Below, one piece after another: positions 4,501 through 57,223 of a DNA stretch of 64,000 bases. Origin of the DNA: Ignavibacteria bacterium (GTDB lineage: Bacteria; Elusimicrobiota; Endomicrobiia; PHAN01); NCBI GenBank assembly GCA_041694835.1, contig JBGFRZ010000082.1, positions 52,266 through 116,265 of the forward strand, given 5' to 3'. The position numbers were made by a program, and so were the translations under genes. The notes under the pieces were generated by a model. It was not told where the DNA came from, did not search any database, and saw only the letters and a program-made list of their open reading frames with translations. Every line of letters begins with the position of its first letter. The stretch's first letter is position 1.

Positions 4501-5168
4501 ATATTCTCCACAACGCTTTTTGGCGAAAAATTGCTTGCGGTTGAATACCAAAGGATGTAACTCGTTATACTGTCGCCGTAGATATTGTCTGTGCCGACAG
4601 GAAATCCACCGGCATTTGTCACATCGCCCCATGCCAGAAAGACCAATGAAGAAAAAACAACTGTTGTCGGGGTTCCTGTGTAGTTGTAGCCACTTACATT
4701 CCCAGGTGAGTTGTTCTGAGTCGCCGACTGGGGCTCAGGACTTGAAGTGTCAAGCAGCGACCAGTTGATGTTGTCCGTCGAAGATTTTATCGCAAAAAAA
4801 TATGTTATATTATTTACAAGAGATGAAACGACTCTCATCTCCGAGTTGCTGGAAGAAGTTGAAGTCGAAAATTTTATCCTGTAGGGGTAAGAAATCGATG
4901 TGGAGTTGTTTGTCCAGTCGGCTTCTGCGACTATTACCCGGTAACTCGAAACTCTTACCTCGTACCATTGAGGCGCTCCTTCCGGCCCACCTGGAGCTGT
5001 CCATTGAAGGGTTATGTGTCTGAAGCCGCTTGATCTTATTGAGAGATCGGTGACCTGATTTGGAACAGCGTTCAGGGTCGTTAATCCAAATAAAAAAAGT
5101 ATCGTCGGCCAAAAAAAACGAACGGGGCGAAACTTATCGATATCCGACAGTTTTGTCCGATGTTTCAT
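1530..5168 (-). CDS. large secreted surface protein (1212 aa): signal peptide, >=8 Fn3/Ig-like ~100-aa repeats, C-terminal T9SS type-B sorting domain (gliding-motility-associated CTD)
   Basis: Recurring repeat motifs PTLxWxxxxDPDxDxxxYxxxxSTxxxF appear throughout. The last ~85 aa, FTPNGDGINDEFNVTF...WNGK...GVYIYQLKVGDKIKNGTVVVAR, match the TIGR04131-type FxPNGDGxND CTD. The N-terminus has a hydrophobic signal-like segment. Confidence 0.6.
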   Translation of the reverse strand: MKHRTKLSDIDKFRPVRFFWPTILFLFGLTTLNAVPNQVTDLSIRSSGFRHITLQWTAPGGPEGAPQWYEVRVSSYRVIVAEADWTNNSTSISYPYRIKFSTSTSSSNSEMRVVSSLVNNITYFFAIKSSTDNINWSLLDTSSPEPQSATQNNSPGNVSGYNYTGTPTTVVFSSLVFLAWGDVTNAGGFPVGTDNIYGDSITSYILWYSTASNFSPKSVVENITQTNWTTPALNENTTYYWRVYARDSEGLLSLGVTGTPQFVVNATSESPTAFSLIQPINDTIETGTLQPTLWWNASSDPDPADFVVYNVYISTSISFESNVSTRVSGINQLSWSPWWNLTENARYFWKVHARDTTGRETVSSSTGSFRLNTVNEPPQPFSLLWPTGGTMIFTSSPTLRWSIAIDLDPGNTVYYGISYSSTTATPAPPVIFDILTTYYQLIDLQEDAVYWWRVVARSSPDNLTTQSEISSFTVKAVNFPPGSFNLLASSGIIRTQTLSLSWQSAIDPDGDTVTYSIFYSSVSNFSIFVSSVGISSPPFSVTTSLNENTTYWWYVIAIDSFNAMTHSSTWFFIVDATSENPKAFSLLSPLDGSFYSYLKPTLLWQETTDPDPYDYVYYYTLTYSTNSLFAIKTQISPIYITSYTFQSDLSNNTTYYWYVTAHSTLTGSTDTLSRSFIAVNLPPNPFVPVSPSGIISTRTPTLIWSPSSDPESDTFWYDVHYSSYENFNVFVSSVGITTTSYITLELKENGTYWWRAVACDIWGNQRWSSVLSFKVNSIEENPSAFSLLSPANGAIIETLMPNFSWSSSFDPDPEDFVVYELWHSTSPDFSSRKVVSNIASLSYQVPLDKTLLVDSTYYWRVYAVDKTSRSTPTTDWSFYTNPSARPLPPTNFKFDIPNTKDIVLSWTAPIKNTDGSSPGNLAGFRVYVAHRFDDLFTSNHVAFVPASSSTLTLALVSDVNIYYMVRAINTLGVLGEPSAVLVAGEPNQNIHHSENGKFQIVAEPEILRPDYSVKITKKENPPDDQKTKLSYMVEIMDREGALIKTGFKKPLTLKFQLENLTASSPAVSKTPSEVASYAVFWFNGVEWVNLGGRYLGAYLIADARYSGEFRVRSLQRAVEFKILNAWPKVFTPNGDGINDEFNVTFENPFSESVTGEIFDLSGYKVAEMEKKSDLWVVWNGKEQSGGALPTGVYIYQLKVGDKIKNGTVVVAR

Positions 5169-5716
5169 ATCTTTATATGTGTGTAATTAAGCCATCTTAT
5201 GATTTTTGAGAATACGCTCTTTTTCTCATTCCTCACAATCTTGAGTGATGTGAGTTTAAGGTTTAATCTTCTTATCTCGTCCTCATACTGCTTGAGAGTA
5301 TTTTTATGGCCGCTTATTGCGACCGATTGAGTATCGATAATATCTTCTTTTTTGTGCAGCACAAGCAAGAAATCTTTTCGCCAGTTTGCGAATTCTTTCG
5401 CCTGAACGGAAATCTTCGCCAACTCGTTTTTCAGAGTTTCTATCTCGTCGCGAAGTTTTTCGTTTTCTTCCCTTATGCTGTTTTTCTCATCCTCAAGAAG
5501 TTGCATTTTTTGATTGCCATCCTCCGCCATCCGAGATAAAATCTCATTCTTTTTGTTTAAATCAGATCTCAGTCTTGTGATTTCGCTCATATACAGATTG
5601 TTTTTCTCTCTGAACAAAGATGATTCTGGCATTTCACCACGACAACCGAATTCATCCTCGAGGCGCTCTATCTTTTTAAGAAGCTCTGAAACTTTAGTTG
5701 CTCTTTGGCTTGCCAT
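5165..5716 (-). CDS. coiled-coil protein (183 aa), E/K/L-rich heptads
   Basis: Track ORF. It overlaps the downstream gene by 4 bp (ATGA) and the upstream gene by ~23 bp, suggesting translational coupling within the operon. Confidence 0.4.
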   Translation of the reverse strand: MASQRATKVSELLKKIERLEDEFGCRGEMPESSLFREKNNLYMSEITRLRSDLNKKNEILSRMAEDGNQKMQLLEDEKNSIREENEKLRDEIETLKNELAKISVQAKEFANWRKDFLLVLHKKEDIIDTQSVAISGHKNTLKQYEDEIRRLNLKLTSLKIVRNEKKSVFSKIIRWLNYTHIKI

Positions 5717-8700
5717 CGTTTCTCCTTATCTTGATTATGGGTTCGTTCAGGTTTTCCCAGAACTTCTTAAACGACGATGCCTTCTTTCCTTCTGAAAACT
5801 CTCCCTCGCCCTCTTTATCGACAAATTTCCTAATCGCCTTCTTGAGTTCATTTATTTCCTCGTCCTTAATTGAGATTTCAATCTCACGGGCTTTGTATTT
5901 TTTTGTTATTTCATCTATAATTTCTTTCAGCTCAAATACATCCGAGGTTGCGATTTTGGTCGCTGAATTTTTCAGATTTTCATAAGCGTCCGATATCTCT
6001 CTCTTCTGAGATTCCATCTCCTCAATTTTTCCGCGATACTCGCTATTTAAAAGCGATATATTTTTCTCGAGGTTCTCCGCTCTCGCTTTTAGTACCGCTC
6101 TTTCCTCTTCTTTCGCCTTTAACTCGGAATCTTTCAAAGACAGTTCTTCCTGTGCGGTCTTTATTGAGTGCTCCATTTCGGCTCTTATTTCACTTAACTC
6201 TGAATTCAGGGCGGATTTCATCTGCGATTTTTCTTTTAAAAGGGTTTCAATCTGATTTCTGTATTTCTCCTCCATCTCCCTTTGAATTTCCAATTCCTTC
6301 CGCCTGTAGTCGAGATGAAGCCTCTCGATTTCTCCCTCTTTCGAAATGATATCGGCTTTAAGTCTGTCTTTTTCATCGTACCACTTTGTGAGCATCTGCT
6401 CATAATTTTTTTTAGACTCTTCGACCTCTTTCCTAAGACGTTCGAACTCAAAGGCATTTTCCATCTCCACTTCCCTTCTCACTTCAAGCTCCATCTGCTT
6501 CCATTCGGCATTCATATTTCTTATCTGGTTTTCTTTTAGAACAATATCCTGTTTGATGTTGTTTGCTTCTTTTTGAGCCGATGAAATCTCCTCTCTGAGT
6601 TTAACGGTTTCTATCTGATAGTTCTTCTTCTCTAATTCAAGAGAAGTGATTTTTCTTTCAATCTCGCCTTTCTCAATCCTAGAATTATTCAGAATCTCCT
6701 GCTCTTTCATCAACTGCTCGGCGAGCTTTCTGTTTAACTCTTCCTTCTGTCTGGCGAATTCATTTTGGACTTCCCTGATTCTTGCGTCGGCATCTTTTTC
6801 TCTGAGTAAAATCGCGTGATTCAGATCGGACACCGCTTTTCTTGCATGTTCAAGCTCAAAACGAATGTGCTCCGCCTCTTTTGAGAGCGCATTACAGCGC
6901 GACTCTTCCTTTGAAAAACTCTCTATCAGACGATGAATTTCCCCGTTAAGCTCCGATATTTTGCTTTCATATCCGCCGATAGTTTTTGATTTTTCCCTCT
7001 CAAATTCTTTTGCAAGGTTTGCGACTTCTCTTTCCGCATCTCGCTGAATATTTACAACATCATTCCTGAGCGACGTGATTTTGGCCTCACTTTCGCTCGT
7101 CAACCTTGATATAGTCTCCTGATAATTCTTTTCAATTTCCTTTATCCTGACTTCGGCCTCCCTCTCTTTTAGCTCGATAGCGTGATTGCTCTCCGCTATC
7201 TTATGACTTGCGTTATCGAGCTCAAAAGTTATCGATGCGATTTTCTGCGAGTATGAATCGTTTTTAGATGATAACTCGACTATATGACTTCTAGAGTCGG
7301 TCAGATCTTTCTCCATGATTTTTTTGTCCTGTTCCAACCGCAAACTCCTCATTTCAAACTCTTTCATTCGCGCCGCGTACTGTTGCATCTGATTTTCATA
7401 TAAAGAGTCACTTCTCTGTGCGTCCTGTCTCAGGATAGAAATTTTCTGCTCATACTCCGCTTCTTTCTGTTCAAGCCTCTGCAACCATTGGGCTTCGGCG
7501 ATTCCGAGTTGAGCTTCCTTTGAGCTAAGTTTTGAGTCGTATTCGGCCGAAAGGGTTCTCAATTTTTCTTCGTAATGCCTTTTAATGTTTTCGAGTTCGG
7601 TTTCCTTCAAACGGACGGCGCTATTAAAATCTCTTTCGTGATCGGCGAAATATACCTTCAGAGATTTTATCTCCTCTTCCTTCTTTTGTATCTCAAAACC
7701 AGATTCCTGGATTTTTTTGTTAAGCTGTTCCTTGTAAAATAATATCTCCCTGAGAAGTTTGTCCTGTTCTGTTTTAGTCTTCCCCTGGAAAAGCGCAAAC
7801 TGCGTCTTCAGGAGAAAATACTCCTTCTCTTTCGCTTCGGCACATTTGACGAGTTCGTTTTTCTCGGTTCTCATCTTTTCAATAAGATGGACGAGCTTCT
7901 CGCCCTTTTCTTTCTGCTCCCTTAATTGAACCGAAGACATTGCAATCTGCGCCTTTATCGCAAGAAACTCTCTATCTCTTTCTTCAAGTTGTTTCAGGAG
8001 AATATTTTTTTCTTCCTGATTTTTTGCGACAGATTCCTTCAAGTCCCTCAAAGCGGCGTCTCTGTCGGATTCCATCCTTGAAATCCTGTTTTCAAAGTCG
8101 TCTTTTTGTTCAAGCAGATTTTTCTCGAATGCAAGCTTCAGTTTCGAGAGCTCTTCTTCTTTATTTCTCAGAGATGTGGACCATCCAAGTTTTTCTTCGT
8201 GCCATTTTCTCTCGAGATCTTTTATCTTCAGGGAAAACTGTTCTTCAATCTCTGTCTCCTGGAAGTCCCTCTGCTGCATCTGTGTCTTTAACGTCTGAAC
8301 CCATGTTTCTCTCTCTTGAGAGAGTCTTTCCTCAAGTTCTTTTATCTTCGATTCGGCTTTCGCTTTCGCTTCCTCTATTTCCTGCTCTCTTTTTTCCCGC
8401 CTGAGGCGTTCTTGAATGTCTTTTATAGATTCCTCGACTTTGGAGGCCATCGCTTCTTCTTCCTTAGACTTCATCATCTGTAAGAGAAGTTTTTCCCTTT
8501 CCTGCTGAAGTTGATTCTGAAGTTCTATTATCTGCTGTTGAAGTTTGGTGGCGGACGCGTCGGAGGCGGGGGTGTCCAAGATGGGCAGATGCTGTGCGGG
8601 CGGCTTCAGAGGCAGCCCGGTCCTTTTGGGGAGTACGGGCGAGCCCGAAGATGGTTTCGGGGGCAGCGGTAGATTTGGTTTTCCTCCTGCGTGTTGACCT

Positions 8701-8741
8701 TTCGATGGCAAAGGCGGAAGTTTGGGTTTTTTATCTTCCAT
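5694..8741 (-). CDS. giant coiled-coil protein (1015 aa) with proline-rich N-terminus (PKLPPLPSKG...PLPPKPSSG)
   Basis: Track ORF. The protein is an almost continuous E/K/L/Q heptad coiled coil. It overlaps the upstream 1616-aa gene by 11 bp. Confidence 0.5.
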   Translation of the reverse strand: MEDKKPKLPPLPSKGQHAGGKPNLPLPPKPSSGSPVLPKRTGLPLKPPAQHLPILDTPASDASATKLQQQIIELQNQLQQEREKLLLQMMKSKEEEAMASKVEESIKDIQERLRREKREQEIEEAKAKAESKIKELEERLSQERETWVQTLKTQMQQRDFQETEIEEQFSLKIKDLERKWHEEKLGWSTSLRNKEEELSKLKLAFEKNLLEQKDDFENRISRMESDRDAALRDLKESVAKNQEEKNILLKQLEERDREFLAIKAQIAMSSVQLREQKEKGEKLVHLIEKMRTEKNELVKCAEAKEKEYFLLKTQFALFQGKTKTEQDKLLREILFYKEQLNKKIQESGFEIQKKEEEIKSLKVYFADHERDFNSAVRLKETELENIKRHYEEKLRTLSAEYDSKLSSKEAQLGIAEAQWLQRLEQKEAEYEQKISILRQDAQRSDSLYENQMQQYAARMKEFEMRSLRLEQDKKIMEKDLTDSRSHIVELSSKNDSYSQKIASITFELDNASHKIAESNHAIELKEREAEVRIKEIEKNYQETISRLTSESEAKITSLRNDVVNIQRDAEREVANLAKEFEREKSKTIGGYESKISELNGEIHRLIESFSKEESRCNALSKEAEHIRFELEHARKAVSDLNHAILLREKDADARIREVQNEFARQKEELNRKLAEQLMKEQEILNNSRIEKGEIERKITSLELEKKNYQIETVKLREEISSAQKEANNIKQDIVLKENQIRNMNAEWKQMELEVRREVEMENAFEFERLRKEVEESKKNYEQMLTKWYDEKDRLKADIISKEGEIERLHLDYRRKELEIQREMEEKYRNQIETLLKEKSQMKSALNSELSEIRAEMEHSIKTAQEELSLKDSELKAKEEERAVLKARAENLEKNISLLNSEYRGKIEEMESQKREISDAYENLKNSATKIATSDVFELKEIIDEITKKYKAREIEISIKDEEINELKKAIRKFVDKEGEGEFSEGKKASSFKKFWENLNEPIIKIRRNDGKPKSN

Positions 8742-11700
8742 TTTTCCCTCCTGATTTGTTATTTATCTTGTTTGTTAATTCCTTCTCAAAGCTAATCAGA
8801 TTCTCGTTTTTAGGTTCTATGGATATCGCCTTTTTTATCGCCATAAGAGCGTCATCCAGTTTGTCTGTGTTATAAAAGCATAAGGACATATACTGCTGTG
8901 CTTCCGCGCTGGATGGATTATTCCGAGTGAACTCCCTCAGTATTTCCAAAGACTCGGAGTAACTGCCTTGTTCGCAAAGTTCTACGGCTCTTTTCAAAAG
9001 CATCGGTCTGACTTCTTTTGGTGTCTGTCCATAAGAAACCATCTTTCCCATAAAGTCGTCGGCGAATTTCTTAAGATTTTCCCTCATCTCCCGTCGACGA
9101 ATGCTTTCTGCCATTATTTCTTTTGTAGTCATTTGCATACCGGCCTCGAGCACATCGAGTTGATTCATCTTAAGTTCAAGCAGTTTTGTGAATCTATCTT
9201 TTTCCGACATTATAGAGTTTTCAAGTTCTGATATTTCCCGAACCATAGAGATAAGTTCGGTGTTTTTATCCTCATAAAGCTTTAACTGAGCGGATATCTC
9301 CGGAGAATCCTTCATATAAGAGGCTCCCGCATCCGCAAGCTCTTTTCTTAAATTCTCTATGGCTTGAGATGAGAGTTTATGCTGCGACTTATTCTTATCG
9401 ATTGTCTCTTCCAGAACTCCTTTTAGTTCATCAATATATTTTTGGAGCTCTTCTCCGCGCTTTTTTGTTTCATTTTGCAGACGCTCATTTCTCAACTCAA
9501 GTCGTTTTGAGAGGGTGGTTATCTTTTCTTCTTCCATATAGATTTTGTTTTTAGACTCTGACAAATAATCGTTGTATTTCCTGAGAAGTTCCGTCAAATC
9601 TTTTTCGAGCTTTTTCAAGAGGTTCTTGCTTTTTTTCTCATGCCTCAATCGCGCAGTCTCGAACTCGGACTTCGAAAGTGCCACTTTGAGTTTTCTGGAT
9701 TCTATTTCCTTTTCAATCTCTCCGATTATCTTTGCCGAAGAGTTCTCGCTTTCTTTCAACTTACTTTCCCAAAGATTCACTTCGGCGAGGAGCGTTTCTC
9801 TCTCTTTAAGAAGCTTCGCTTCCTGAAGGACCCATTCGGATTCGAGGCGATTTTTTTCATCGTCATATTTTGCCTCTAGTTCTCTTTGCGTTTTTATTTT
9901 CCCGGAAATCGTTTCCCCGGTTTCCTTCTTTAACTTTTCCATTTCAGACGACAACTTTTCCATCTCTCGCTCGATCTTTTCTTTCTCGGCGAGGTGTTCT
10001 TTCGTTATTCGTTGCTCTTCGTCGGTCACATAGGATTCCCATGTTGTTATTTTGTTTCCGAGCTCTTTCATCTCTTCTTCTTTTTGCGATTTTAAATTGC
10101 TCCAGTAATCGCCTTGCTCTCTGATAGTCTTTTGAAGAGTTGATATCTGCTCTTCAAGTCTTTTATTCGTATCAGTCCAGGTTGTCTCTTTATTCTTTAG
10201 TTCATTTTTTGTCTGTTCAAGAGATGCCTGTGATTTATTGATGAACGCATTCAGCTCGCTCGTCTTGGAGCAAAGCGCGGTTTTGCCCGCATTCTGAACT
10301 TCCAAAAAGTTGTTTTGGAGCATCGTCAGTTCTTCGGCCAGAACTTTTCTCTCGTTTTCATAATTTTCGTTTTGCTTTTTTTCCTCCTCGTGCCATGATT
10401 TTTCTCTTAAAGCCATCTGCGTCTTCAGGACATAAAGTTGCCTGTCCAGAATCCTTACTTCATCGCGATTCGTTCCGACTAGAGCTTTTAGCTTATGTTC
10501 TAACTCATCCCTCTTCCTATCAAGCGAATGTTTCTCGGCGGCATAATTCTGTGATGAGTTTTCAAACTTTGTTTTCATTTCATCTTCCAATACTTTTAGA
10601 TTCTGCTGTCCAACTTTCAGTTTTTCTTCAACTTCGGATAACTCTTGCTCCTGCTTGATTTTTATGGCTTTCATCTGGTTTTCAAGATTTTCTTTCCTTT
10701 TTTCAATTCTTTTGACGAACTGCTCATGCGATTGAAAATATGAATCTCTATTTTTTGTGTAATTATCCTCCTGTTCCTTCAATTTCGCATTTAGTTCCTG
10801 AATCTGCTGCTGCCTTGTGGCAACCATCCCCGGATGTTTTTCTTCCAACTGCGCAAGTTCCATTTCATTCGATGTAATTTTGGAAATCAGCAGTTCTTTG
10901 ACTTTATTAAACTCGCTTTCCATATGATTCAACCTGGCTTTATACTCCTGTTCAAACCTCAAGTGGTCCGACTTAAGCTTTTCAATTTCACGCTTTTTCT
11001 CCGCCAGCAACTCCGCATGGCGGGATTTCATCTCTTCCGATTCATTTTCAATCTTTTCTATTTCCTCATTTATGAGCTTTTTTTCATTTTCATTTTCTAA
11101 CTCAAGAATTTTTATTTCTTTTTCATATTTGTGAATGTTGGTTTCACGAGATGCGTTTAAAAAAGTTATCTTGTTATCGAACTCTATTAAGATATCAGCA
11201 TGTTTTTTTCTTGTTTCATCAAGTTTTTTTGAAGATTCTTCGAGTTTTTTTCTGACCAACTCAAGCTCCGCGCTTATTATGCTCTCCTTTTCTTCTATCT
11301 CATATTTATTTGCCGAAATTAAATCATTCACTTTTTTACTTATCGCTTGTATATGTCTTTCGGACTCCGAAATTTCACTTTCGCATTTTTCTTTAAAAAA
11401 ATTAAACCCGACTTTCGTCCTTTCAAGCGACTCTATCGCTATCTTCTTCTTGCCTTCAAGTTCAAAGCGGGTGGCGTCCAAATTTTTTTGTAACACCGCT
11501 GTCTTTTCCAAAAGAACTTTTTCTAACTGATTGTTCTCATCGTTTTTCGCGCTTACGGTCTCATCAAATCTCTTTTGTTCTGAAATCACCACACTATTCA
11601 ATTCCTCTATTTTAGCCTCAATACTTCCTTTTTCTTCTTTTAGTTTTACATTAAAACTTTCAAGCGCAAGAGAATGATTTTTCTTTTCATCTTCCATCTT

Positions 11701-13581
11701 TTGCATCAAAGACTGATGGACATTTTCAAGTTCCTTCATGTTTTTTGAATGTTCTTTTTCAAGCGATATTTTTTGAGAGTCAATCTCGTCTATGTCGGCC
11801 TTTATTGAATCGATTTCGGCCGAGAGTTTATCGACTGACTGATGGTATCTACTTTCAAGCATATTTTCCTGATGGGCAAAACGTTGCTTCAAACTTAAAT
11901 AATCTCTTTCCTTTTCTGCCATCTTCTGCTTAAAATCCATCTCAAGACGCGCTTTTTTACTTTCAGCGACCTTCAGCTTTTCTTTATAAGGTTCAACTTC
12001 CACAAAAAGTTTCTTTTTAGCGTTCTCAAAAGACCTGGTGCTTTCCAAAAGTTCCGCTTCCACTGAATTTTTTGCGGCTTCAACCTGGGATTTCTTTTGA
12101 GAAAGAAGTGAAGAGTACTCCGTCTTTATTTTCGAAAAATCTTCCTGGAACTTTTGATATTTATCCTCGATGAGTTTTTTCTCCTCGGAAAGAATTTCAA
12201 TTTGATGTTTATGTTGAAGATTCTTCTGTTCCTGGTTCGATTGCCAATCGTTTTTGAACTTTTCCATCTCTTCGTACTTTCCGGAGAGTTCACTTTGATA
12301 TTCTATTTTCTGGTTCAAAACTTCTTTTTCAAGATCAGTACATCTCAAAGAGATTCTCTTTTTTTCATTTTCAATATTTGTTTTGTATTTTTCTATTTCT
12401 GCGTTTTTCTCCCTTATCTTTATTTGAGCCTGGATTTTAATGTCTTCTATATCCTGATCCGCGACTCTTATCATATTCTCCCATTCGGATTTTTCCTGCT
12501 CATATTTCTGATGAAGCTCCTTGAGCTGTTTTTCAGCCAGAGATTTTGCCTCTTTGAACTCGTTGAAACGTTTTTCGCGAGCGGAACTTTCCTGCGTTTC
12601 CTGAAGCATCATGTCAATTTTTAGTTTATTGAAAGCATCTTCCCTCTCTTTCAATAGTTTCTCGTATTTCTCCTTTTCGGAAAGCGACTCCCTTTCCATC
12701 TCACTCATCTGAGCCACTAACTTTTCTTTTAAATCCTTAAGCAATATCTTTTTCGCATTCAGTTCCTGCTCATATATTATCTGACGCTGTTTCAAAGCCG
12801 AGCTGAATGCAAGCAATCCCTCTTTTTTATCGTTATAAATTTTCTGGAAGTTTGCTCTCATTTCGGAAAGATTTTTTTCAACACCATTCAACTGATTATT
12901 GTAATTGCCTTCTAATTCTTTTTTCTCCCGATGAAATTTTTCCTCTTCCTGCCGGGACTGGTTGACTCTGAGGGATATCTGTGCTTTTAATGCCACGATT
13001 TCCTCTTCCCTGCCTTTCAGTCTTGTTACAAATTCCCCTATTTCCTGCTGTGCTTTTTTCTCGAAGGCAAGAAGCTGACTTTCTATCTCTCTTAATTCCT
13101 GAGTGGATGAAATTATCTCTTTTTCATCTTCGGCTTTTTTTTCGTTTTCCCTGGTTTGCAAATTTACTTTTGTTTCGTCTATCTCGGTTATGATAGCTCT
13201 GATTTTTTGACCCCACTCTTTATCCTCTTCTTCTATCTTGCGCTCAACCCTTTGCAGTTCGTCATTCCATTTTTTTCTAAGCGAATTTATCGAGTCCTGA
13301 TGAAGTTGCATGTTGTTTGAAAGTTCGAGTTCAACAAGTTCAAGATGGATGGAAAGTTTTATTTTTTCATCTTCTTTCTCTTTTTCTTTCTTCCTGTAAT
13401 TTTCCCGCTCAACTTCGAGCATCTTTTCTATGTTTTCAAGTTGCTCACGCGCCGTTTTTTTTATGCTTTGTAAATCATGGCTGGCGGTAAGCTCTATCTT
13501 TTTCTCGTCGCACTCAATATCCGATGTCGCTTTTTTTTCGGCGACTGGTTCCTCTTTGTGTTTGATTAGCCACTTCCACAT
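8731..13581 (-). CDS. giant coiled-coil protein (1616 aa) with C-terminal TPR-like repeats
   Basis: Track ORF. It reads as ~1500 aa of SMC/myosin-tail-like coiled coil followed by LEILREFTRNNPSSAEAQQYMSLCFYNTDKLDDALMAIKKAISIEPKN (TPR). Confidence 0.5.
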   Translation of the reverse strand: MWKWLIKHKEEPVAEKKATSDIECDEKKIELTASHDLQSIKKTAREQLENIEKMLEVERENYRKKEKEKEDEKIKLSIHLELVELELSNNMQLHQDSINSLRKKWNDELQRVERKIEEEDKEWGQKIRAIITEIDETKVNLQTRENEKKAEDEKEIISSTQELREIESQLLAFEKKAQQEIGEFVTRLKGREEEIVALKAQISLRVNQSRQEEEKFHREKKELEGNYNNQLNGVEKNLSEMRANFQKIYNDKKEGLLAFSSALKQRQIIYEQELNAKKILLKDLKEKLVAQMSEMERESLSEKEKYEKLLKEREDAFNKLKIDMMLQETQESSAREKRFNEFKEAKSLAEKQLKELHQKYEQEKSEWENMIRVADQDIEDIKIQAQIKIREKNAEIEKYKTNIENEKKRISLRCTDLEKEVLNQKIEYQSELSGKYEEMEKFKNDWQSNQEQKNLQHKHQIEILSEEKKLIEDKYQKFQEDFSKIKTEYSSLLSQKKSQVEAAKNSVEAELLESTRSFENAKKKLFVEVEPYKEKLKVAESKKARLEMDFKQKMAEKERDYLSLKQRFAHQENMLESRYHQSVDKLSAEIDSIKADIDEIDSQKISLEKEHSKNMKELENVHQSLMQKMEDEKKNHSLALESFNVKLKEEKGSIEAKIEELNSVVISEQKRFDETVSAKNDENNQLEKVLLEKTAVLQKNLDATRFELEGKKKIAIESLERTKVGFNFFKEKCESEISESERHIQAISKKVNDLISANKYEIEEKESIISAELELVRKKLEESSKKLDETRKKHADILIEFDNKITFLNASRETNIHKYEKEIKILELENENEKKLINEEIEKIENESEEMKSRHAELLAEKKREIEKLKSDHLRFEQEYKARLNHMESEFNKVKELLISKITSNEMELAQLEEKHPGMVATRQQQIQELNAKLKEQEDNYTKNRDSYFQSHEQFVKRIEKRKENLENQMKAIKIKQEQELSEVEEKLKVGQQNLKVLEDEMKTKFENSSQNYAAEKHSLDRKRDELEHKLKALVGTNRDEVRILDRQLYVLKTQMALREKSWHEEEKKQNENYENERKVLAEELTMLQNNFLEVQNAGKTALCSKTSELNAFINKSQASLEQTKNELKNKETTWTDTNKRLEEQISTLQKTIREQGDYWSNLKSQKEEEMKELGNKITTWESYVTDEEQRITKEHLAEKEKIEREMEKLSSEMEKLKKETGETISGKIKTQRELEAKYDDEKNRLESEWVLQEAKLLKERETLLAEVNLWESKLKESENSSAKIIGEIEKEIESRKLKVALSKSEFETARLRHEKKSKNLLKKLEKDLTELLRKYNDYLSESKNKIYMEEEKITTLSKRLELRNERLQNETKKRGEELQKYIDELKGVLEETIDKNKSQHKLSSQAIENLRKELADAGASYMKDSPEISAQLKLYEDKNTELISMVREISELENSIMSEKDRFTKLLELKMNQLDVLEAGMQMTTKEIMAESIRRREMRENLKKFADDFMGKMVSYGQTPKEVRPMLLKRAVELCEQGSYSESLEILREFTRNNPSSAEAQQYMSLCFYNTDKLDDALMAIKKAISIEPKNENLISFEKELTNKINNKSGGKNGR

Positions 13582-13596
13582 ATTATTCCTCCGCTT

Positions 13597-15411
13597 TTAT
13601 TTTCTTGATGCCTCGAGTTTTATCTGTTCAATAAAGTTTGACAGCTCCGTGTCATTTGGGTTTATGTTTAACACCGCTTCATAATTTGCAATCGCTTCGT
13701 CATATCTTCCGAGAGCATAATATGAAGCGGCAATATAACTGTAGGCGTCGGTCAAAGTGTTGTCGATTGAAAGGACGTACTCAAGATAGCTTATGGCATC
13801 CTCATAGTTTCCCGCTTCATAACTGGAGAGTCCTGCCTGATAGTAATCCGCAGCGTCACCTTCCGAAGGAGCGGCTTCTTCGTCAACAACCTCTTCACCC
13901 TCAAGAGCGCTGCTTTTCGGCTTTTCTCTTATAAAGATTTTACCGTCATCTTCAAGTTTTCTTATGACATCCATTATTTTCTTTCTTCCTTCTTCTGTCT
14001 GTAACGGCGTTACGGATTGGGTGTACTGCATTTCTTCTTGAATAAGTTGGACCGCGTTAGACGACATGTTGGCAAAAAACTTATTTACCACATCCTGAGG
14101 CACTCCTTTGAGTGAGCGGGCAAGAAGTTCCGAATTTTTCAAATCTGGAAAGTTAAGTATTGTCTGCATCGTCTGATCCGTGAAGTTCTTAATGTCATCA
14201 AACTTCAATATAAACTTTCTGACCCTGTCGTAGAGTTCCGGTTTTTCGTTCTGTAGATAATCCAGTATGTTGTCCCTTGTTACGTTGTCAACCTGATCAA
14301 GCACTTTCAAAAGATGCTCTATGCCGCCTATTAGGAAGTCTATCTTTTCTTTTATGTCGTCGTCTATCTTCATTACCTTATCCCTCGTCATCTGTCTTAT
14401 GGTCGCCATCTCTATGGCCACCTGCGACTGAACCTGCGCCGAAAGGCTGAGAAGTATCTCTTTGACATGCTCGGGTTTAAGATAACTTATTACGAGAGCT
14501 ATTATTCTTGCGCTTTCTTTCCTTATTAAATATATAAGTCTTTTAAGATTTTCGTCATCTACATAGTGAAACGGTTTGTACTTTTTTTTCTCCTCTTCCA
14601 GCGCTTCAAGCTCAGCCGCAGAAAGAGCGCCGCCTCCGCCTCCTCCTTCACCGCCTTCTGGCTCCCCCTCGGGGTTTTCGAATTTTGAATCCACGGTAAC
14701 TTCTGTTCCGCCCTTTTCCCTCATCGTTTTTACATATGCACGGAAAAAGCCAGCAAGAGGACCGAAAAGAAAAAATAAAAGAAGAAATGCTATAACAAGA
14801 GGTATCAAAACAAGCGGCTTCAGCAGCTCTTCAAAAAATCCCGTCGTGAATTTTGTTTTCTTAAAATCTATCCGGTCACCGCGCTTTTGATCTATTCTGA
14901 GAGCGGAAGTAATAGCATCTTTTACGGCTTCAAGTTTCGACTCGGGAACTTTTTCATCGTGCAAAACAGTCACTATCTGTTTTTTCAGAGCAATTTTGAC
15001 CTCGACAGTTATTTTTTCCTGCTGGCCGGCCTCTTCTTTCGATTCGCCGACTTGATCCGCTTGAGAAACCGCTCTGGGCGCCGGAACACCCGGCAGCAGA
15101 TACTCCACCTCGCCTATCGGCTTCTTTTTTTCGGCCTTTCTTTCCCTGACGAAGGTTTTTCTGGTTATCGTATCAAGACCGAATTCGACATCGACTATGG
15201 CTATCGCTTTATCCGGTCCAAGTATCCTGTCAAGGATGTCTTTCTGAACGTACTCCGTCTTTTCTTTTTCGTACTTGAGTTCATGTTCTATCAGTGAGAT
15301 TTCCGCAGACTGCGGGGTCATCTGTCCATAAAGATAAACAAAAGAAGAAAGAGCCAGTAAAAGTGCCACCGCGCTTTGTTTCAAATTTTTAAGCTGTTTT
15401 AATTTTTTCAT
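13597..15411 (-). CDS. membrane protein fusing FliF/YscJ-like periplasmic ring-building motif, TM helix, FliG-like middle+C-terminal domains and C-terminal TPR repeats (604 aa)
   Basis: N-terminal signal/TM anchor MKKLKQLKNLKQSAVALLLALSSF. The periplasmic segments AIAIVDVEFGLDTITRKTFVRERK and ITVEVKIALKKQIVTVLHDEKVPESKLEAVKDAITSALRIDQKRGDRIDF resemble FliF ring-building regions (compare SARVHLAMPKPSLFVREQK and VTVTLEPG...VVHLVSSAVAGL). A second TM helix is PLVLIPLVIAFLLLFFLFGPLAGFF, followed by a Gly-rich linker. Then ESARIIALVISYLKPEHVKEILLSLSAQVQSQVAIEMATI ... DIKNFTDQTMQTILNFPDLKNSELLARSLKGVPQDVVNKFFANMSSNAVQLIQEEMQY..EEGRKKIMDVIRKLEDDGKIFI follows the FliG/MgtE-N fold pattern. TPR repeats lie at the C-terminus. 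Confidence 0.5.
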   Translation of the reverse strand: MKKLKQLKNLKQSAVALLLALSSFVYLYGQMTPQSAEISLIEHELKYEKEKTEYVQKDILDRILGPDKAIAIVDVEFGLDTITRKTFVRERKAEKKKPIGEVEYLLPGVPAPRAVSQADQVGESKEEAGQQEKITVEVKIALKKQIVTVLHDEKVPESKLEAVKDAITSALRIDQKRGDRIDFKKTKFTTGFFEELLKPLVLIPLVIAFLLLFFLFGPLAGFFRAYVKTMREKGGTEVTVDSKFENPEGEPEGGEGGGGGGALSAAELEALEEEKKKYKPFHYVDDENLKRLIYLIRKESARIIALVISYLKPEHVKEILLSLSAQVQSQVAIEMATIRQMTRDKVMKIDDDIKEKIDFLIGGIEHLLKVLDQVDNVTRDNILDYLQNEKPELYDRVRKFILKFDDIKNFTDQTMQTILNFPDLKNSELLARSLKGVPQDVVNKFFANMSSNAVQLIQEEMQYTQSVTPLQTEEGRKKIMDVIRKLEDDGKIFIREKPKSSALEGEEVVDEEAAPSEGDAADYYQAGLSSYEAGNYEDAISYLEYVLSIDNTLTDAYSYIAASYYALGRYDEAIANYEAVLNINPNDTELSNFIEQIKLEASRK

Positions 15412-15422
15412 ATATTTACCCT

Positions 15423-17057
15423 TTATCTAAGTTGGTTCAGGAACTGCGGAACCACTCTGTTTGTTGGATCTATTTCGAGCACCCGCATCCAGACCTCTTT
15501 TGCTTTTTCCGGCTGATCCATCATAAAGAAAGCGCTTCCCATAATTTCGTAAGCTGTCACATGGTTCGGTTCAAGATTCAGCACTTCCTGGGCTTTAATA
15601 AGGGCTTTGTCATATTTGCCGTCTATTATGGCTTGTCTTGCGTCGAAGATCTTCTGATCTATTATAGTAAATCCTGCGATTGTTTCCTTGAATGCTTCCG
15701 TAGGCGGGATGCCCATTTCTTTTTCAATCCTGTTCAACAAAGCAAGTAGCTTCATGTTCTCGGGTTTTTTGTAATAAGCATATCTGAAAGAGTTTATGGC
15801 GCCCGTGTCGTCGCCTTCTATATATGCTACAATCCCTTTTCTTGTCGCTACGGCATCTTCAGTATCTCCTACCACAGTGTCTATGTGACCTATTATTACC
15901 TGTAGTTTTTTGGACATATTCTGTGCATCTTTATTGGCCGGGTCTATATCAAGAAGTTTTTCAAGTCGATTGTGGGAAAGAAGCATGTCTCCTTTTCTGT
16001 AGGATTCTATAGCTTCTTTCATAAGACGCACCACTATAGCCGCTCTGTTAGCGCTTACCGATTCCCCTATTTTCCACGAACCGGATATTCTATGTGAAAG
16101 TCCGAGCTCATGCAAAGCAAACGCATAATCAAGCCCGTAATCTTTATATTTGAAACCAAAACCAGCGGTTGTCTCTCTTATTCTACCTTCGCCCTCGAAT
16201 CCGAGACGCATGGCAAGATAATTCATAAGCCAGTATTCTGTCCCTATGTGCCAGCCGAGATTTGCGTTAAGCGATTTTTCAATATCAAACGCCAGTAAAA
16301 ACTTTTTTTTCATAAACGGATGGGCCGCGCCGACTCTGAATATCATAGGAAGTTTGTCTTCCGTATCGCCAAAGCTCGTAGAAATTATGTTCCTGACACC
16401 GAAAGCAATTTTTATATCGGGCAACGTGTCATTTACTCCTTCAAGGAGCAGCGCAAGATCGAATGTTAGGGCTCCGCTTATAGAATCGGCCAGAGCATGG
16501 TTCATGTACTTCCCAGAAAGACCTATGGAGAGATTTTCTCTTATTCTTCTGCCGTATGCTGCCATTAAAGCCAGACGGGAATCTTCAAATGTGCCTAAAT
16601 TTTCAATCTTAACTATGTCCTGTGTAGTTGGGTCTATGTTTATCGCTATTTTTTCAAAACCGCCCGAGTGGAGACGGACGATGTTTGCTCCGAAAACTCC
16701 CAACTTTGCGGTTGGATGCACATACGACAGAAAGTTATAGTTGGTATCGGCAAAAAGCGTGGCATGGAGAGCCATAACTTCTTTCCTGTCAAGCTGGGTC
16801 AGAGCTGCCGGATTCCAGTAAGTAGCGGAGGCATCGTCGGAAACCGCGAAAAACGCTTTTCCCATACCAAGTGATTTAGCGCCAGCACCCCATGAAAGGA
16901 ACTGCCCAGGCTGGCCGCCGGTGGCAGCGGCAAAGACAGAGGATAGCGGCGAGAGACAAGAGACGAGAGAACAAATAAAAACAAAAGCCATCCCTGACAA
17001 AGTTTTTGCGACTTTGTTCGCTAGTTTTGTCGAGAGTTTTGTTTTTGAATTTTTCAT
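15423..17057 (-). CDS. FadL/OmpP1/PorV-like outer-membrane beta-barrel with C-terminal TPR domain (544 aa)
   Basis: A signal peptide is followed by GAKSLGMGKAFFAVSDDASATYWNPAAL, the FadL-family N-terminal signature. The body is beta-strand-rich. The C-terminal ~200 aa are TPR repeats. Confidence 0.55.
   Translation of the reverse strand: MKNSKTKLSTKLANKVAKTLSGMAFVFICSLVSCLSPLSSVFAAATGGQPGQFLSWGAGAKSLGMGKAFFAVSDDASATYWNPAALTQLDRKEVMALHATLFADTNYNFLSYVHPTAKLGVFGANIVRLHSGGFEKIAINIDPTTQDIVKIENLGTFEDSRLALMAAYGRRIRENLSIGLSGKYMNHALADSISGALTFDLALLLEGVNDTLPDIKIAFGVRNIISTSFGDTEDKLPMIFRVGAAHPFMKKKFLLAFDIEKSLNANLGWHIGTEYWLMNYLAMRLGFEGEGRIRETTAGFGFKYKDYGLDYAFALHELGLSHRISGSWKIGESVSANRAAIVVRLMKEAIESYRKGDMLLSHNRLEKLLDIDPANKDAQNMSKKLQVIIGHIDTVVGDTEDAVATRKGIVAYIEGDDTGAINSFRYAYYKKPENMKLLALLNRIEKEMGIPPTEAFKETIAGFTIIDQKIFDARQAIIDGKYDKALIKAQEVLNLEPNHVTAYEIMGSAFFMMDQPEKAKEVWMRVLEIDPTNRVVPQFLNQLR
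16911..16991. repeat. pyrimidine/purine-skewed low-complexity tract (ggcagcggcaaagacagaggatagcggcgagagacaagagacgagagaacaaa) encoding the signal-peptide h-region MAFVFICSLVSCLSPLSSVFAAATGG
   Basis: Direct reading of the DNA and its minus-strand translation. Confidence 0.55.
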
Positions 17058-17093
17058 TTCATCAAACCCTGTCCTCTACTCTCTCCTCCGCTT

Positions 17094-17462
17094 TTAATGT
17101 ATGACTCCAATTTTTCTTAAAGCCACTATCTTCCCGCCATCGACGGAAACCACACAGATATATCCGCCCTTGGCGACGTAATGACCGTTTTCGTCGCGAC
17201 CGTCCCACAGGATTGTATCTCCAAAAAATTCGAGATGCTTGACGGGGCGGCCAAAAAGATCGAAAATTTTTACCGCAATTCCAACGTCGGTCTGATTTGA
17301 TTTTTTTACAAGGATGCTTGTGGAAGTTTTTCTCGAATCGAACGGATTGGGATAGTTTGAAAGAAATATGTCAGAAGATGATGCGACGGATGCCGTCAAC
17401 AAAAGAATTGATGAGGCGAAAGGGATAAGTAAAAGATAATTTAAAAAGTTGATGTGCTTCAT
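17094..17462 (-). CDS. small secreted protein consisting of a signal peptide plus T9SS type-A C-terminal sorting domain (FlgD-Ig-like CTD) only (122 aa)
   Basis: LSNYPNPFDS...VKIFDLFGRPV..L....ILWDGRDENGHYVAKGGYICVV...KIVALRKIGVIH matches the TIGR04183/PF13860 CTD pattern. It is the first gene of the operon. Confidence 0.5.
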   Translation of the reverse strand: MKHINFLNYLLLIPFASSILLLTASVASSSDIFLSNYPNPFDSRKTSTSILVKKSNQTDVGIAVKIFDLFGRPVKHLEFFGDTILWDGRDENGHYVAKGGYICVVSVDGGKIVALRKIGVIH

Positions 17463-17971
17463 AAATTGCCTTCGGTAACCCGGCCGCCATAATCTCGCAT
17501 TTTGCTTGATGTTAGGCCCGTATCCTGACCTATAGTCAGAATGACCCGATTCAACATCGGGATCGGCTTTGCGTCCTCCGGTTTCCCGGAGTTTGCCATT
17601 TATCGGACAATCCTTACGTTTCCATCTCCGCCACGGCGGAAGGGGGCTATCAAAATAAAAATGCTACCGAACTTCCGCCCGGTAGCATAAAGATAGGGGG
17701 TCCTAAAACTTGTTGCAAACCACTACAACCGCAACCGCTAACAAATTAAACTTACTACACCTTCTCTCGGTAGCCCGGCCAGCTCCCCCGACATTATGTC
17801 GGGGGCATCGCTCCGATTTCCCGAAACGATTTTGATAGCCCCCTATCTTTAGCTCCGCGGCTTTGCGTCCTCCGGTTTCCCGAAGTTTGCCTTTATCGCA
17901 ATATATATATAATAAAATTTATGACATTTGTCAAGGTTTTTTTAACAGCCGAAATTCTGCCAAAAATTGCA
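17463..17971. other. structured 510-bp non-coding leader/element: two 41-bp direct repeats (17565-17605, 17859-17899) flanking ~250 bp with perfect hairpins and a 15-bp inverted repeat
   Basis: The direct repeat ggctttgcgtcctccggtttcccg(g/a)agtttgcc(a)tttatcg occurs twice. gggggctatcaaaat at 17641 pairs with attttgatagccccc at 17826. The hairpin cccccgacattatgtcggggg has a 9-bp stem and gctaccgaacttccgcccggtagc a 7-bp stem. No ORF >=60 aa lies in this region. Confidence 0.5.
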
Positions 17972-22469: not shown

Positions 22470-23474
22470 CTAAACAGATAGTAATTTTAATTGATGAATA
22501 TGTTGATACCGATAATGATTACGTTTAATCAAAGAATGCTTTTTTTCAATGTCAACTTCTTTCAATCTTCGAATAGCAATTTTTACATATTCACTATTAG
22601 AATCAATTCCAATGTATTTCTTTTCTAATATCTTGGCAGCGACTGTCGTGGTAGCGCTCCCAACAAAAGGGTCTAATATAATGGCATTTTTAGAAAAAGC
22701 CGATAACTGAATCAAATATTCACAGATCGCTAATGGTTTCACTGTTTTATGTAGATTATAATCTCCTTTTTCTTTCTTTGATGGTTTGGGCAACAGGAAC
22801 ACTTTATCAATCTCAGTGTTTATGTTTTCAGTGGTAATTACATTTGCTGGATACATATTTTTACCCAATCTAATATTCGTATTTACCAAACCAACTTTGT
22901 ATTTCAACATGTTGTTTAGATAAGTAGTGTCTGTCGGTTTTTGCGCCACAGCAATAGGTTCAAAACAAGATTTAATCTGCGGGGTCTTCCATCCGTGCAA
23001 TCTTTCTCTAATAATATTTTTTTGGTCATTGCCAGCTCCCATCTTATCAATAAAATGATTAAGCCCCATTGCCTTTGCCTGATTTTGAGTATAGAGCCAC
23101 ATGAAAACATCTCTGATCTCAAATCCCGCATCGTCCAATGCTGATGCCATTCTATGATATAGGCGAGGACTAGAAAATGAAAAGAAAAATCCACCGGGTT
23201 TCAATAATCTGATAATTTCCTTTGATATTTTTAAATACCAACTATAAAATCTGACGCCTTGTTCTCTCTCAAATTTCATTCCAGCTGGCAATGACTTTAT
23301 GATGTAGTGATTGCGTGTATTAGTTACTACTTCATGATTCCATTGGTTGTCCAGTTTATCTAAAAAATACGGGGGGTCAGTTATAACAAGATCTATTGAA
23401 TTGCTTTCAATTTGCGGAAGCACGTTTAATGCATTATCACATATAATTTTATTCAAAAATTTTTTGTTTTTCAT
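22470..23474 (-). CDS. DNA methyltransferase, N6-adenine/N4-cytosine (PF01555-type, DPPY motif)
   Basis: LVITDPPYF is motif IV. ILDPFVGSATTTVAAKILEKKYIGIDSNSEYVKIAIRRL is the C-terminal AdoMet motif I. The gene is visibly AT-richer than its flanks. Confidence 0.8.
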   Translation of the reverse strand: MKNKKFLNKIICDNALNVLPQIESNSIDLVITDPPYFLDKLDNQWNHEVVTNTRNHYIIKSLPAGMKFEREQGVRFYSWYLKISKEIIRLLKPGGFFFSFSSPRLYHRMASALDDAGFEIRDVFMWLYTQNQAKAMGLNHFIDKMGAGNDQKNIIRERLHGWKTPQIKSCFEPIAVAQKPTDTTYLNNMLKYKVGLVNTNIRLGKNMYPANVITTENINTEIDKVFLLPKPSKKEKGDYNLHKTVKPLAICEYLIQLSAFSKNAIILDPFVGSATTTVAAKILEKKYIGIDSNSEYVKIAIRRLKEVDIEKKHSLIKRNHYRYQHIHQLKLLSV

Positions 23475-42918: not shown

Positions 42919-43431
42919 CTATTTCAGTTTGTCGTATATCCCGTAAATTTTCGTAAGTTTAAGCACCTTCACTATTTTCAACTTTTCCACTTTCGTTTTC
43001 AGATTGGTGCGGTAGTAAATTATGAATTTTTTGGCGAGCAGATATACAGGAACAAAAAGTATAATCGAAATCAAAATGCTACCGAGAACAACGGTGTTGT
43101 TGAATCTAGTGAAAGGAACAATGGGCAGGTTGTAAAGATAACTCCAAAAAGGAGCAAGTAAGCGGGCATCCACAAGCAGAGCGTAGCCGAAGATATCGGC
43201 CAGCGGATCCGCAAAATAGGCCACGAGCTTGAACAAAAGCGCCGAAAATAAAGCTGCTCCTATGTTCACCTTAAGCAAGAATATCAACAGAAATACGAAG
43301 ATGCCGAGAACTAAGCTTAAAGGCACAAGACCAAGTATTACACCGAAAGCCACTCCGGCGGCGATCTCGGACGGAGAAATTTCACTGTGTAACAACCTTA
43401 TGATTTTCTGAATTATCTTTAGCCAAAACAT
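42919..43431 (-). CDS. DUF2062-family membrane protein
   Basis: SPSEIAAGVAFGVILGLVPL..L..FVFLLIFLLKVNIGAALFSALLF is the typical DUF2062 pattern. The gene is flanked by two copies of the palindrome gaaatccttcggatttc (42903 and 43448). Confidence 0.45.
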   Translation of the reverse strand: MFWLKIIQKIIRLLHSEISPSEIAAGVAFGVILGLVPLSLVLGIFVFLLIFLLKVNIGAALFSALLFKLVAYFADPLADIFGYALLVDARLLAPFWSYLYNLPIVPFTRFNNTVVLGSILISIILFVPVYLLAKKFIIYYRTNLKTKVEKLKIVKVLKLTKIYGIYDKLK

Positions 43432-43701
43432 CGATTCCCTCCCATGAAATCCTTCGGATTTCTACATGAGTGTGTATCAGTGCCGACTTAGGCATTCGCT
43501 TCCTGCAAACATTATAGTAATTATTTTTGGTTTTTCAAAAGGTGCTACACTCAAATGTACTGCGGGGGTTGACCCCGTTAGAAATTATAGCGCTCTTAAG
43601 AGGAAATTAAAAGTTTCCCTGAACTCCTCAAATCATCAGAGATTTCTAACGGGGTTGACTAAAAAATTCGTATTTGATAGAATAACTCGCATATAATTTG
43701 A

Positions 43702-43787: not shown

Positions 43788-43799
43788 AAAAGGAGAATT

Positions 43800-44294: not shown

Positions 44295-44434
44295 GCCCCG
44301 TCAGAAATTACCGGGATTCTATGAAAAATAAAAAAGTTCGGCTCTTCTCCAAATGTTTTTATACGCACAACAAAAAATGGCGAAGACCCGAAAGTTTTAA
44401 CAAACCTTACAAATATCGGAAAGTTTCTTGTAGT

Positions 44435-57221: not shown

Positions 57222-57223
57222 TT

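Follow-up and report, generated by a model that had tools for sequence, protein, structure and literature searches.

The 510-bp repeat-rich stretch reads, with a probability of roughly 85%, as a minus-strand 5' leader with two class-I c-di-GMP riboswitches that controls the operon downstream of it (Table 1). This estimate is for three things taken together: that the element consists of tandem c-di-GMP-I riboswitches, that these lie on the minus strand and that they control the operon; the direction of regulation is graded separately. An earlier reading made from the letters alone (the sequence-only reading) had offered three identities for the stretch. The first, a riboswitch or long 5' UTR, is borne out by Rfam matches to two c-di-GMP-I aptamers and by a position directly 5' of a minus-strand operon, while the other two, a small RNA gene and a MITE-like insertion, are not. 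The features it had listed are all present where it placed them, but the strand, the RNA family, the tandem nature and the role of the 7-bp hairpin as a terminator had escaped it. Along the minus strand the order is promoter, aptamer 1, a 64-nt spacer, Y1 and terminator T1, Y2, aptamer 2, SD and AUG.

Table 1. Features of the leader and of the operon 3' of it, in coordinates of the window.
Feature	Position or size	Strand	Basis or remark
Sigma-70-type promoter, putative	TTGACA 17934-17929, 17-nt spacer, TATATA 17911-17906	(-)	Read from sequence
Aptamer 1, c-di-GMP-I (GEMM-I)	17900-17765	(-)	RF03167 60.0 bits (gathering score 59), E = 1.2e-11 over the window
Element X, apex of aptamer-1 P3, UAAAGAUAGGGGGCUAUCAAAAU	17829-17851	(-)	Invariant or nearly so in 12/12 tandem loci
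Insertion in aptamer-1 P3, lineage-specific	17785-17828	(-)	Two hairpins, (b) and (c)
Y1, CCCCCUAUCUUUA, complement of X1	17688-17700	(-)	Directly 5' of T1
Intrinsic terminator T1	17651-17688	(-)	Terminator scan; lies between the aptamers
Y2, AUUUUGAUAGCCCCCU, perfect 16-nt complement of X2	17641-17656	(-)	Just after T1, overlaps the distal U-tract
Aptamer 2, c-di-GMP-I	17607-17471	(-)	RF01051 45.2 bits (gathering score 35)
SD GAAGG (17473-17469) and AUG (17462-17460) of first operon gene	17460-17473	(-)	MFE and centroid structures
Operon predicted to be regulated, seven tightly packed genes, ~16 kb	17462-1530	(-)	Surface/secretion-type proteins
Gene 1	122 aa		Signal peptide and T9SS-CTD-like; little beyond the T9SS-type C-terminal domain
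Gene 2	544 aa		PorV/PorQ-family protein with TPR
Gene 3	604 aa		FliG-like protein with TPR
Further operon proteins	1616, 1015 and 183 aa		
Operon protein	1212 aa		T9SS type-B sorting domain

Family membership is established by covariance models. The Rfam scan that the sequence-only reading had suggested as a check was run over the entire window (the whole 64-kb stretch of DNA analysed) and returned two c-di-GMP-I aptamers, both above their gathering scores and on the minus strand only; no further riboswitch was found in the 64 kb. Within clan CL00126, aptamer 2 passes the gathering score by RF01051 and aptamer 1 by RF03167, its best-scoring clan member. Against the main reading, aptamer 1 lies just 1 bit over the cut-off of this top-ranked model, the score of aptamer 2 is modest (45 bits), and both aptamers carry insertions of ~40-45 nt that covariance models cannot align. 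The orthologous aptamer 1 of relatives reaches 80-88 bits with RF01051.

These relatives were fetched with the PorV-like second gene of the operon and comprise loci from Endomicrobiia/Elusimicrobia MAGs (L001-L003) and from metagenomes (L010-L036). A tandem leader precedes the orthologous operon in L001, L003, L008, L010, L012-L017, L032, L033 and L035, i.e., wherever the gene order matches and the upstream sequence is long enough. The PorV-like proteins of these loci are only 56-77% identical to that of the window, and the retention of two aptamers at all of them despite this divergence marks the tandem as an old, conserved part of the operon and not an insertion. The small first protein has 153 homologues, of which those with a named source are from Elusimicrobia, apart from one from Margulisiibacteriota.

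Both aptamers show the expected architecture, with a P2 hairpin of the GNRA type (GAAA loop in both) and a P3 hairpin that are supported by covariation. In aptamer 1, P1 is formed by CG 17898-17897 and CG 17769-17768, the P2 hairpin spans 17890-17865, and the strands of P3 are 17861-17852 (5') and 17783-17773 (3'). Tested on an 11-locus alignment of aptamer 1 and Y1-T1, the state that combines aptamer 1 with T1 is paired in 98.8% of cells; sliding the partners by 1-3 columns lowers this to 22-43%. Compensatory change affects six pairs, among them five of the six in P2. Element X (general form UAAAGAUAGGGG(G)CUAUC, nearly invariant) contains hairpin (a), GAUAG-GGGG-CUAUC at 17847-17834, as well as the segments X1 (17851-17839), which is complementary to Y1, and X2 (17844-17829), which is one arm of an inverted repeat. 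The lineage-specific insertion in P3 consists of hairpin (b) at 17828-17809, with a GAAA loop, and hairpin (c) at 17805-17785. The latter is the perfect 9-bp-stem hairpin already spotted in the sequence-only reading, with arms of 10 nt. Both hairpins appear in every predicted fold and show compensatory substitutions between the window and L001, the only two loci that possess them (none of the other 10 does). Aptamer 2 has a two-hairpin insertion of its own at the P3 bulge, roughly at 17558-17521, between GCC and CGG. The Rfam model alone mis-aligned this aptamer, and a canonical threading was used instead; across the four loci that have the P3-bulge insertion, 97.4% of the cells in P1, P2 and P3 are paired under this threading and four pairs show compensatory change.

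The fold of the minus-strand leader has a free energy of -180.3 kcal/mol (z = -5.4 against dinucleotide shuffles). The earlier remark that no ORF is present stands: the overlapping ORFs (41-89 aa) are merely mechanical and none is conserved as coding. Transcription from the putative promoter is predicted to start around 17899-17897, at the 5' edge of aptamer 1. The same arrangement, TTGACA-N17-TATAT(A/T/G/C), is also present 5' of aptamer 1 in L001, L008, L016, L017 and L032. A promoter consensus scan, which demands a T at position 6 of the -10 element, gave only an overlapping weaker site.

The first aptamer is equipped with an expression platform, as T1 sits before aptamer 2 and has a conserved alternative antiterminator pairing. 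The gctaccg..cggtagc hairpin of the sequence-only reading is, on the minus strand, a stem of 12 pairs (17688-17661; 17688-17677 with 17672-17661) with a GGAA loop that runs into a U-tract (17661-17652). A T1-like stem with U-run is kept in 12 of 12 loci, and the T1 stem is 100% paired in the alignment. The 5' strand of T1 (GCU-A-CCG-GGC) mimics the 3' strand of P3 (GCU-GG-CCG-GGC), so that the P3 5' strand together with X is able to pair with Y1 (general form CCCC(C)UAUCUUUA) together with the T1 5' strand. This antiterminator comprises 22 bp in the window. Over the 11 loci, about 92.2-94.3% of the cells of its helix are paired with one compensatory swap, and the length of the G-run in X (4 or 5) equals that of the C-run in Y1 at 10 of them. 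With the 3' strand of T1 withheld, to mimic the point at which the choice is made, folding gives the antiterminator as the MFE structure in 11/11 loci. Adding T1 yields -1.5 to -6.1 kcal/mol in the free RNA versus -3.6 to -14.8 kcal/mol with P3 enforced (11 loci). The antiterminator also uses up a UAAAG segment that matches the tetraloop-receptor region, so that the antiterminator and docking stabilised by the ligand exclude each other. Two observations speak against this part of the main reading: the X1:Y1 core of the antiterminator does not itself overlap T1, the overlap being made through a weaker, bulged extension, and some pairs of this extension fail in relatives (columns 43/161 and 50/154).

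Riboswitch 1, i.e., aptamer 1 with T1, would operate at the level of transcription. With c-di-GMP bound, P3 would be held intact, T1 would form and transcription would stop; with no ligand, the antiterminator would form and RNA polymerase would read through. The stretch that separates the aptamer from Y1 would allow time for the ligand to bind, in agreement with the kinetic control known for the c-di-GMP-I class. From this folding model, riboswitch 1 is probably an OFF switch.

The inverted repeat X2:Y2 is harder to place. Reported before as 15 bp long, it is in fact a 16-nt repeat with 100% complementarity (17641-17656 / 17829-17844). Y2 cannot set the termination decision because it is transcribed only after it. 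In the MFE structure of the full leader, X2:Y2 is used together with T1. A shorter (A)GCCCCC follows T1 in eight of the 12 loci, L001 not being one of them, and a similar GCCCCC motif occurs after aptamer 2 in distant relatives. The duplex energies of the post-T1 linker with aptamer 1 beat those of shuffles in some loci (z = -2.8, -3.0 and -2.4). One role of Y2 may be to refold read-through RNA, taking the antiterminator and aptamer 1 out of play; another may be stabilisation of the 5' end. Still, X2:Y2 is the most conspicuous feature of the stretch and the main reading leaves it without an explanation; the repeat is also missing from L001, the closest full relative. The leader might instead be a coupled multi-state tandem riboswitch with X as a three-way switching element, rather than two switches in series. 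X would then pair with its own P3 strand in the ligand-bound state, with Y1 and the T1 5' strand, or with Y2; read-through RNA would refold to a locked state that retires aptamer 1 and passes control to aptamer 2, and the P2 stems and the P2-like GAAA hairpin of the insertion would be held identical by gene conversion or selection. The 16 perfect pairs in the window suit such a coupling, which we nevertheless regard as unlikely.

For two OFF-switching units in series, the second decision would fall on translation. Aptamer 2 ends 8 nt before the AUG, and the strand 17618-17606 (CGUA..GAUUGUC) is predicted to extend its P1 into the translation start: GAUUGUC (17612-17606) pairs with GGCAAUU (17470-17464) and CGUA (17618-17615) with UAUG (17463-17460). 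This extension helix covers the start codon and part of the SD. L001, the other of the two full sequences available for the lineage, has the same helix as AAUUGUC:GGCAAUU. Opening the SD-AUG region is predicted to cost 4.2-5.4 kcal/mol, but 6.5-8.6 kcal/mol with the aptamer core enforced, the ligand energy being excluded from these values. The ligand should accordingly stabilise the helix that covers SD and AUG, and riboswitch 2 (aptamer 2) is, by a slight preference on this model, a translational OFF switch. A discrete ON-state competitor was not found by folding, and riboswitch 2 may be a simple, stability-tuned translational OFF switch. Against the main reading, the helix covering the SD is the MFE structure already without ligand, which makes the size of the ligand effect uncertain, and the SD (GAAGG) is weak. 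In one suboptimal fold, the post-T1 linker (Y2 plus CCGCCGUGG) seemed to act against aptamer 2 and thereby to free the SD; this candidate was ruled out, as its duplex energies with aptamer 2 are no better than those of shuffles in any of the 11 loci (z from -1.1 to +1.0) and the segment is absent from L001. More distant relatives have ~170 nt and a second intrinsic terminator 3' of aptamer 2. Two OFF switches responding to one ligand would make repression of the operon at high c-di-GMP steeper and more digital.

The opposite direction has its own precedent. Many c-di-GMP-I riboswitches 5' of adhesin and surface-protein genes are ON switches, and the operon studied here encodes surface/secretion-type proteins. 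ON switching has also been predicted for several c-di-GMP-I riboswitches in a review (PMC9481103). One or both switches could accordingly be ON, so that c-di-GMP induces the operon, or an ON and an OFF switch could be mixed into a band-pass filter. The folding of riboswitch 2 leaves the direction unfixed, the SD helix forming with or without the aptamer constraint. For riboswitch 1, however, no competitor of T1 was found once aptamer 1 is folded, and the T1 5' strand has a single competitor, formed by the P3 5' strand with X, which the ligand should sequester. Likewise, P1 of aptamer 2 and the SD-covering helix are coaxial, and the ligand should strengthen that helix. We therefore hold ON or mixed switching to be rather improbable.

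Both aptamers are predicted to sense c-di-GMP from the nucleotides at the ligand-contact positions. In the Vc2 aptamer, c-di-GMP is contacted by G20, A47 and C92 (PMC4744006). The equivalents, mapped via the Rfam consensus alignment with consensus columns matched to Vc2 numbers by counting, are G, A and C in both aptamers: 17891, 17864 and 17770 in aptamer 1 and 17597, 17570 and 17475 in aptamer 2. The top rank of RF03167 for aptamer 1 had raised the candidate of a true GGC-variant aptamer, the meaning of 'GGC' being taken from the consensus of that model. Its core consensus is GCGAA, versus GCAAA in RF01051. Both window aptamers read GGACGCAAAGCC, and GCAAA is present in every aptamer of the 12 loci, including those that rank RF03167 first. 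The variant is thus ruled out by a core that mismatches the model in the alignment, and the top rank is a scoring artefact.

It could be argued from the same rank that each aptamer has a ligand of its own (for example, c-di-GMP and 3',3'-cGAMP, or the ligand of a 'GGC' variant that would itself be unknown) and that they together form a two-input logic gate. An A in place of G20 has been linked to selectivity for c-AMP-GMP (PMC9481103), and aptamer 1 has an A at this position in L008, L016, L017 and L032. Those four loci could be c-AMP-GMP or mixed-input systems. They differ in this from the window, where both aptamers have G20, A47 (GCAAA) and C92, and GCAAA recurs throughout the 12 loci. A two-ligand gate is thus very unlikely for the leader studied here.

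Also very unlikely is a leader whose main product is a trans-acting small RNA of ~250 nt (aptamer 1 with T1), control of the operon being secondary. Terminated riboswitch leaders that act in trans are known, namely the SAM riboswitches of Listeria, and a strong promoter with a strong terminator 250 nt further on would yield an abundant short RNA at high c-di-GMP. Yet no trans target is evident, the arrangement always lies directly 5' of the same operon, and the second aptamer abuts the SD. The free-standing small RNA gene of the sequence-only reading finds no support, and a terminated leader of ~250 nt would be a by-product of the two riboswitches.

The direct repeats that first drew attention to the stretch are the conserved 5' halves of the two aptamers, i.e., the P2 GAAA hairpin plus GACGCAAAGCC. 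Each is composed of AA(A/U)GGCAAAC, a P2 strand, GAAA, the other P2 strand and GGACGCAAAGCCG. The earlier description of the repeat, two 41-mers with one mismatch, is not quite accurate: 33 nt with one mismatch are followed by a 1-nt indel and seven matching nt. The ungapped repeat measures 37 nt (17564-17600 / 17858-17894; 95% identical). Additional copies, which had been put forward as something to look for, do not occur in the 64-kb window: a search for the 41-mer with at most three mismatches (0 expected by chance) recovered only copy 1 there, copy 2 being missed because the indel splits the repeat. Conservation and covariation in relatives, whose absence had been listed among the refuting conditions, are both present.

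These repeats of ~37 nt bracket ~250 bp that hold inverted repeats, which resembles a MITE-like or otherwise mobile insertion with a duplicated target, or repeats that serve as recombination substrates without an RNA function. If the two copies recombined, a single chimeric aptamer would remain, and single-aptamer relatives do exist. The probability of this explanation is negligible, as the repeats are the cores of two Rfam-recognised aptamers and not target-site duplications, have no more copies in 64 kb and enclose a segment whose inverted repeats are internal instead of terminal, while distant relatives keep both aptamers and the same architecture at the orthologous position, with compensatory base changes. 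The relatives with one aptamer differ in gene order and have hairpin (a) standing alone, and are no deletion product. A tRNA/tmRNA integration site was also considered and rejected: ARAGORN gives only a tRNA-Leu at 43.7 kb, and the 300-aa ORF upstream is panC, not an integrase.

Most of the 37-nt repeat is conserved family-wide, but the P2 stems differ between genomes. Within a genome, the paired P2 stems are identical or one base apart in the window, L001, L010/L012, L017, L032 and L033. The mean P2 difference is 2.8 within genomes versus 4.8 between genomes (permutation p = 0.005). This pattern points to homogenisation of the P2 stems by concerted evolution, for example by gene conversion within the tandem. 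Each of four Logan contigs from close relatives starts inside P2 of aptamer 2, consistent with a repeat that is longer than the k-mer of the assembler.

Compared with the prototype Vc2 of Vibrio cholerae (RF01051), both aptamers share P1/P2/P3, the GAAA tetraloop of P2, the CUAA(A)G / UAUGG-type receptor region in P3, the GGCAAAC and GACGCAAAGCC blocks, the equivalents of G20, A47 and C92, and the location in a 5' UTR. They differ from it by their insertions of ~40-45 nt, at the P3 apex in aptamer 1 and at the P3 bulge in aptamer 2. Usually, the antiterminator of a c-di-GMP-I riboswitch recruits the P1 3' strand, whereas that of riboswitch 1 is built from the P3 5' strand and the P3 apex. Aptamer 1 resembles the RF03167 variant in overall fold and in top score, but is not a member in view of its GCAAA core. 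The c-AMP-GMP (3',3'-cGAMP) riboswitches of GEMM-Ib have the same fold, with an A20 that is matched in aptamer 1 of some relatives; the window aptamers have G.

The tandem arrangement itself is well known, and the locus adds another example. The c-di-GMP-I class is the commonest tandem riboswitch class, with 347 doublets and 12 triplets (Sherlock et al. 2022, PMC9481103), and its tandems are interpreted as pseudo-cooperative and more digital (PMC9481103). The triple tandem Bc3-5 of Bacillus thuringiensis has been validated experimentally (PMC4759541). As in these systems (PMC9481103, PMC4759541), a single leader holds more than one aptamer of its class, here two, and the first unit has its own intrinsic terminator, so that independent action and a sharper dose-response are possible. 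Unlike in the known tandems, the host is of the Elusimicrobia type and the target would be a T9SS-like, FliG-like operon. The second unit abuts the SD and is predicted to be translational, distant relatives having a second terminator instead; a segment of 16 nt that follows T1 pairs with part of aptamer 1, and the P2 stems are nearly identical within a genome. Less ordinary features, as far as the models go, appear to be the P3-built antiterminator, the large insertions in both P3 arms, the proposed combination of transcriptional and translational control, and the homogenised P2 stems.

For RNA biology, the locus would add c-di-GMP-I aptamers that tolerate large P3 insertions, an expression platform made from the P3 5' strand and the tetraloop-receptor region, and a clear example of tandem aptamers that evolve in concert; the way riboswitches are currently understood is unchanged. 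For the host, a conspicuous non-coding stretch receives a function, and tight repression by c-di-GMP is predicted for a 16-kb operon of unknown function. The riboswitch would offer a handle on when the apparatus with PorV-like, FliG-like and T9SS-sorting-domain proteins is made in an uncultured lineage of Elusimicrobia, and it is plausible that high c-di-GMP would repress it. The two very large proteins of the operon have no Pfam matches, and the order of the first three genes is the same in relatives. Upstream of the leader lies panC (18874-17972); both genes flanking the leader are on the minus strand. Further away, the 20 large ORFs scanned in 21-64 kb include no GGDEF or EAL gene, and the sole c-di-GMP-related match among them is an MshEN-domain ATPase.

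Several relatives of the tandem c-di-GMP-I leader, which come from Endomicrobiia/Elusimicrobia MAGs and metagenomes and are designated by L numbers, differ at the ligand-contact position G20 (Vc2 numbering). Aptamer 1 carries an A for G at this position, within AAUAGCAAAC, in L008, L016, L017 and L032. Aptamer 2 of L008, L016 and L017 retains the G, and in L032 both aptamers, aptamer 2 included, have the A. An A at G20 is a signature linked to c-AMP-GMP-selective GEMM-Ib riboswitches (PMC9481103). The L008, L016 and L017 loci may be natural two-input tandem switches, responding to cGAMP plus c-di-GMP.

In distant relatives (L003, L008, L010, L012, L013, L016, L017, L032, L033 and L035), a motif (G/C)UCUUU(A/C)A is conserved 5-20 nt upstream of aptamer 2. 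It is missing in the window and in L001, and is similar to the 3' part (CUUUA) of Y1, the antiterminator partner of the aptamer-1 P3 apex. The motif could be a further pairing partner for the UAAAG segment in the tetraloop-receptor region of P3. The same motif lies ahead of the aptamer in L021-L024, loci with a different gene order and a single aptamer each. Here, a TTGACA-N17-TATAAT-like promoter is directly followed by a stand-alone hairpin, GGAUAGGGGGCUAUCC, about 100-150 nt upstream of the aptamer, and the tandem loci have this same hairpin as the P3 apex of their aptamer 1. Hairpin (b), which lies inside the aptamer-1 P3 insertion, is capped by a GAAA tetraloop, and its stem is similar to that of the GAAA-capped P2 in each genome (window, UUUCGG-GAAA-UCGGAG versus CUUCGG-GAAA-CCGGAG; the resemblance in L001 is comparable). 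Hairpin (b) may have arisen as a copy of P2, or may serve as an alternative donor of the tetraloop.

In Logan assemblies of close relatives, four contigs (L004, L005, L006 and L007) all begin within the aptamer-2 P2 hairpin (positions 1-30), consistent with assembly graph breaks at the intragenomic aptamer repeat. Short-read assemblies may systematically lose tandem riboswitch leaders.

Coordinates of features in the window and in related loci
Feature	Locus	Position	Strand
Operon under predicted riboswitch control	window	1530-17462	minus
Hairpin (b), within aptamer-1 P3 insertion	window	17809-17828	
Hairpin (b)	L001	about 556-575	
N6/N4 DNA methylase gene	window	22470-23474	
PilB/T2SSE-type ATPase with N-terminal MshEN domain	window	37134-38849	minus
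dnaA	window	49836-51236	
N6/N4 DNA methylase gene	window	55468-56484	
Aptamer 1, A at G20	L008	1357-1445	
Aptamer 1, A at G20	L016	1603-1691	
Aptamer 1, A at G20	L017	1474-1561	
Aptamers 1 and 2, A at G20	L032	1572-1660; 1804-1902	

The regulated operon encodes a 604-aa protein in which FliG middle and C-terminal domains are combined with TPR repeats and a FliF-C-like segment. The T9SS-like products of the operon are a small CTD-only protein, a TPR-bearing member of the PorV/PorQ family and a 1212-aa protein that carries a type-B sorting domain; neither the 1616-aa nor the 1015-aa operon protein matches a Pfam family. Together, the FliG-like rotor protein and the T9SS-type components could point to an uncharacterised kind of envelope machine in this Elusimicrobia-type genome.

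Elsewhere in the window, no GGDEF/EAL genes were found among 20 large ORFs scanned at 21-64 kb. The MshEN domain is a c-di-GMP-binding module, and its presence in the PilB/T2SSE-type ATPase would suggest that c-di-GMP use in this organism extends to the protein level. Two N6/N4 DNA methylase genes are also present. Near 43-44 kb the minus orientation of the genes gives way to plus, and tRNA-Leu, yidC, mnmE, ksgA, dnaA, dnaN, gyrB and gyrA follow; this region (about 43000-60000) is the chromosomal replication-origin neighbourhood.
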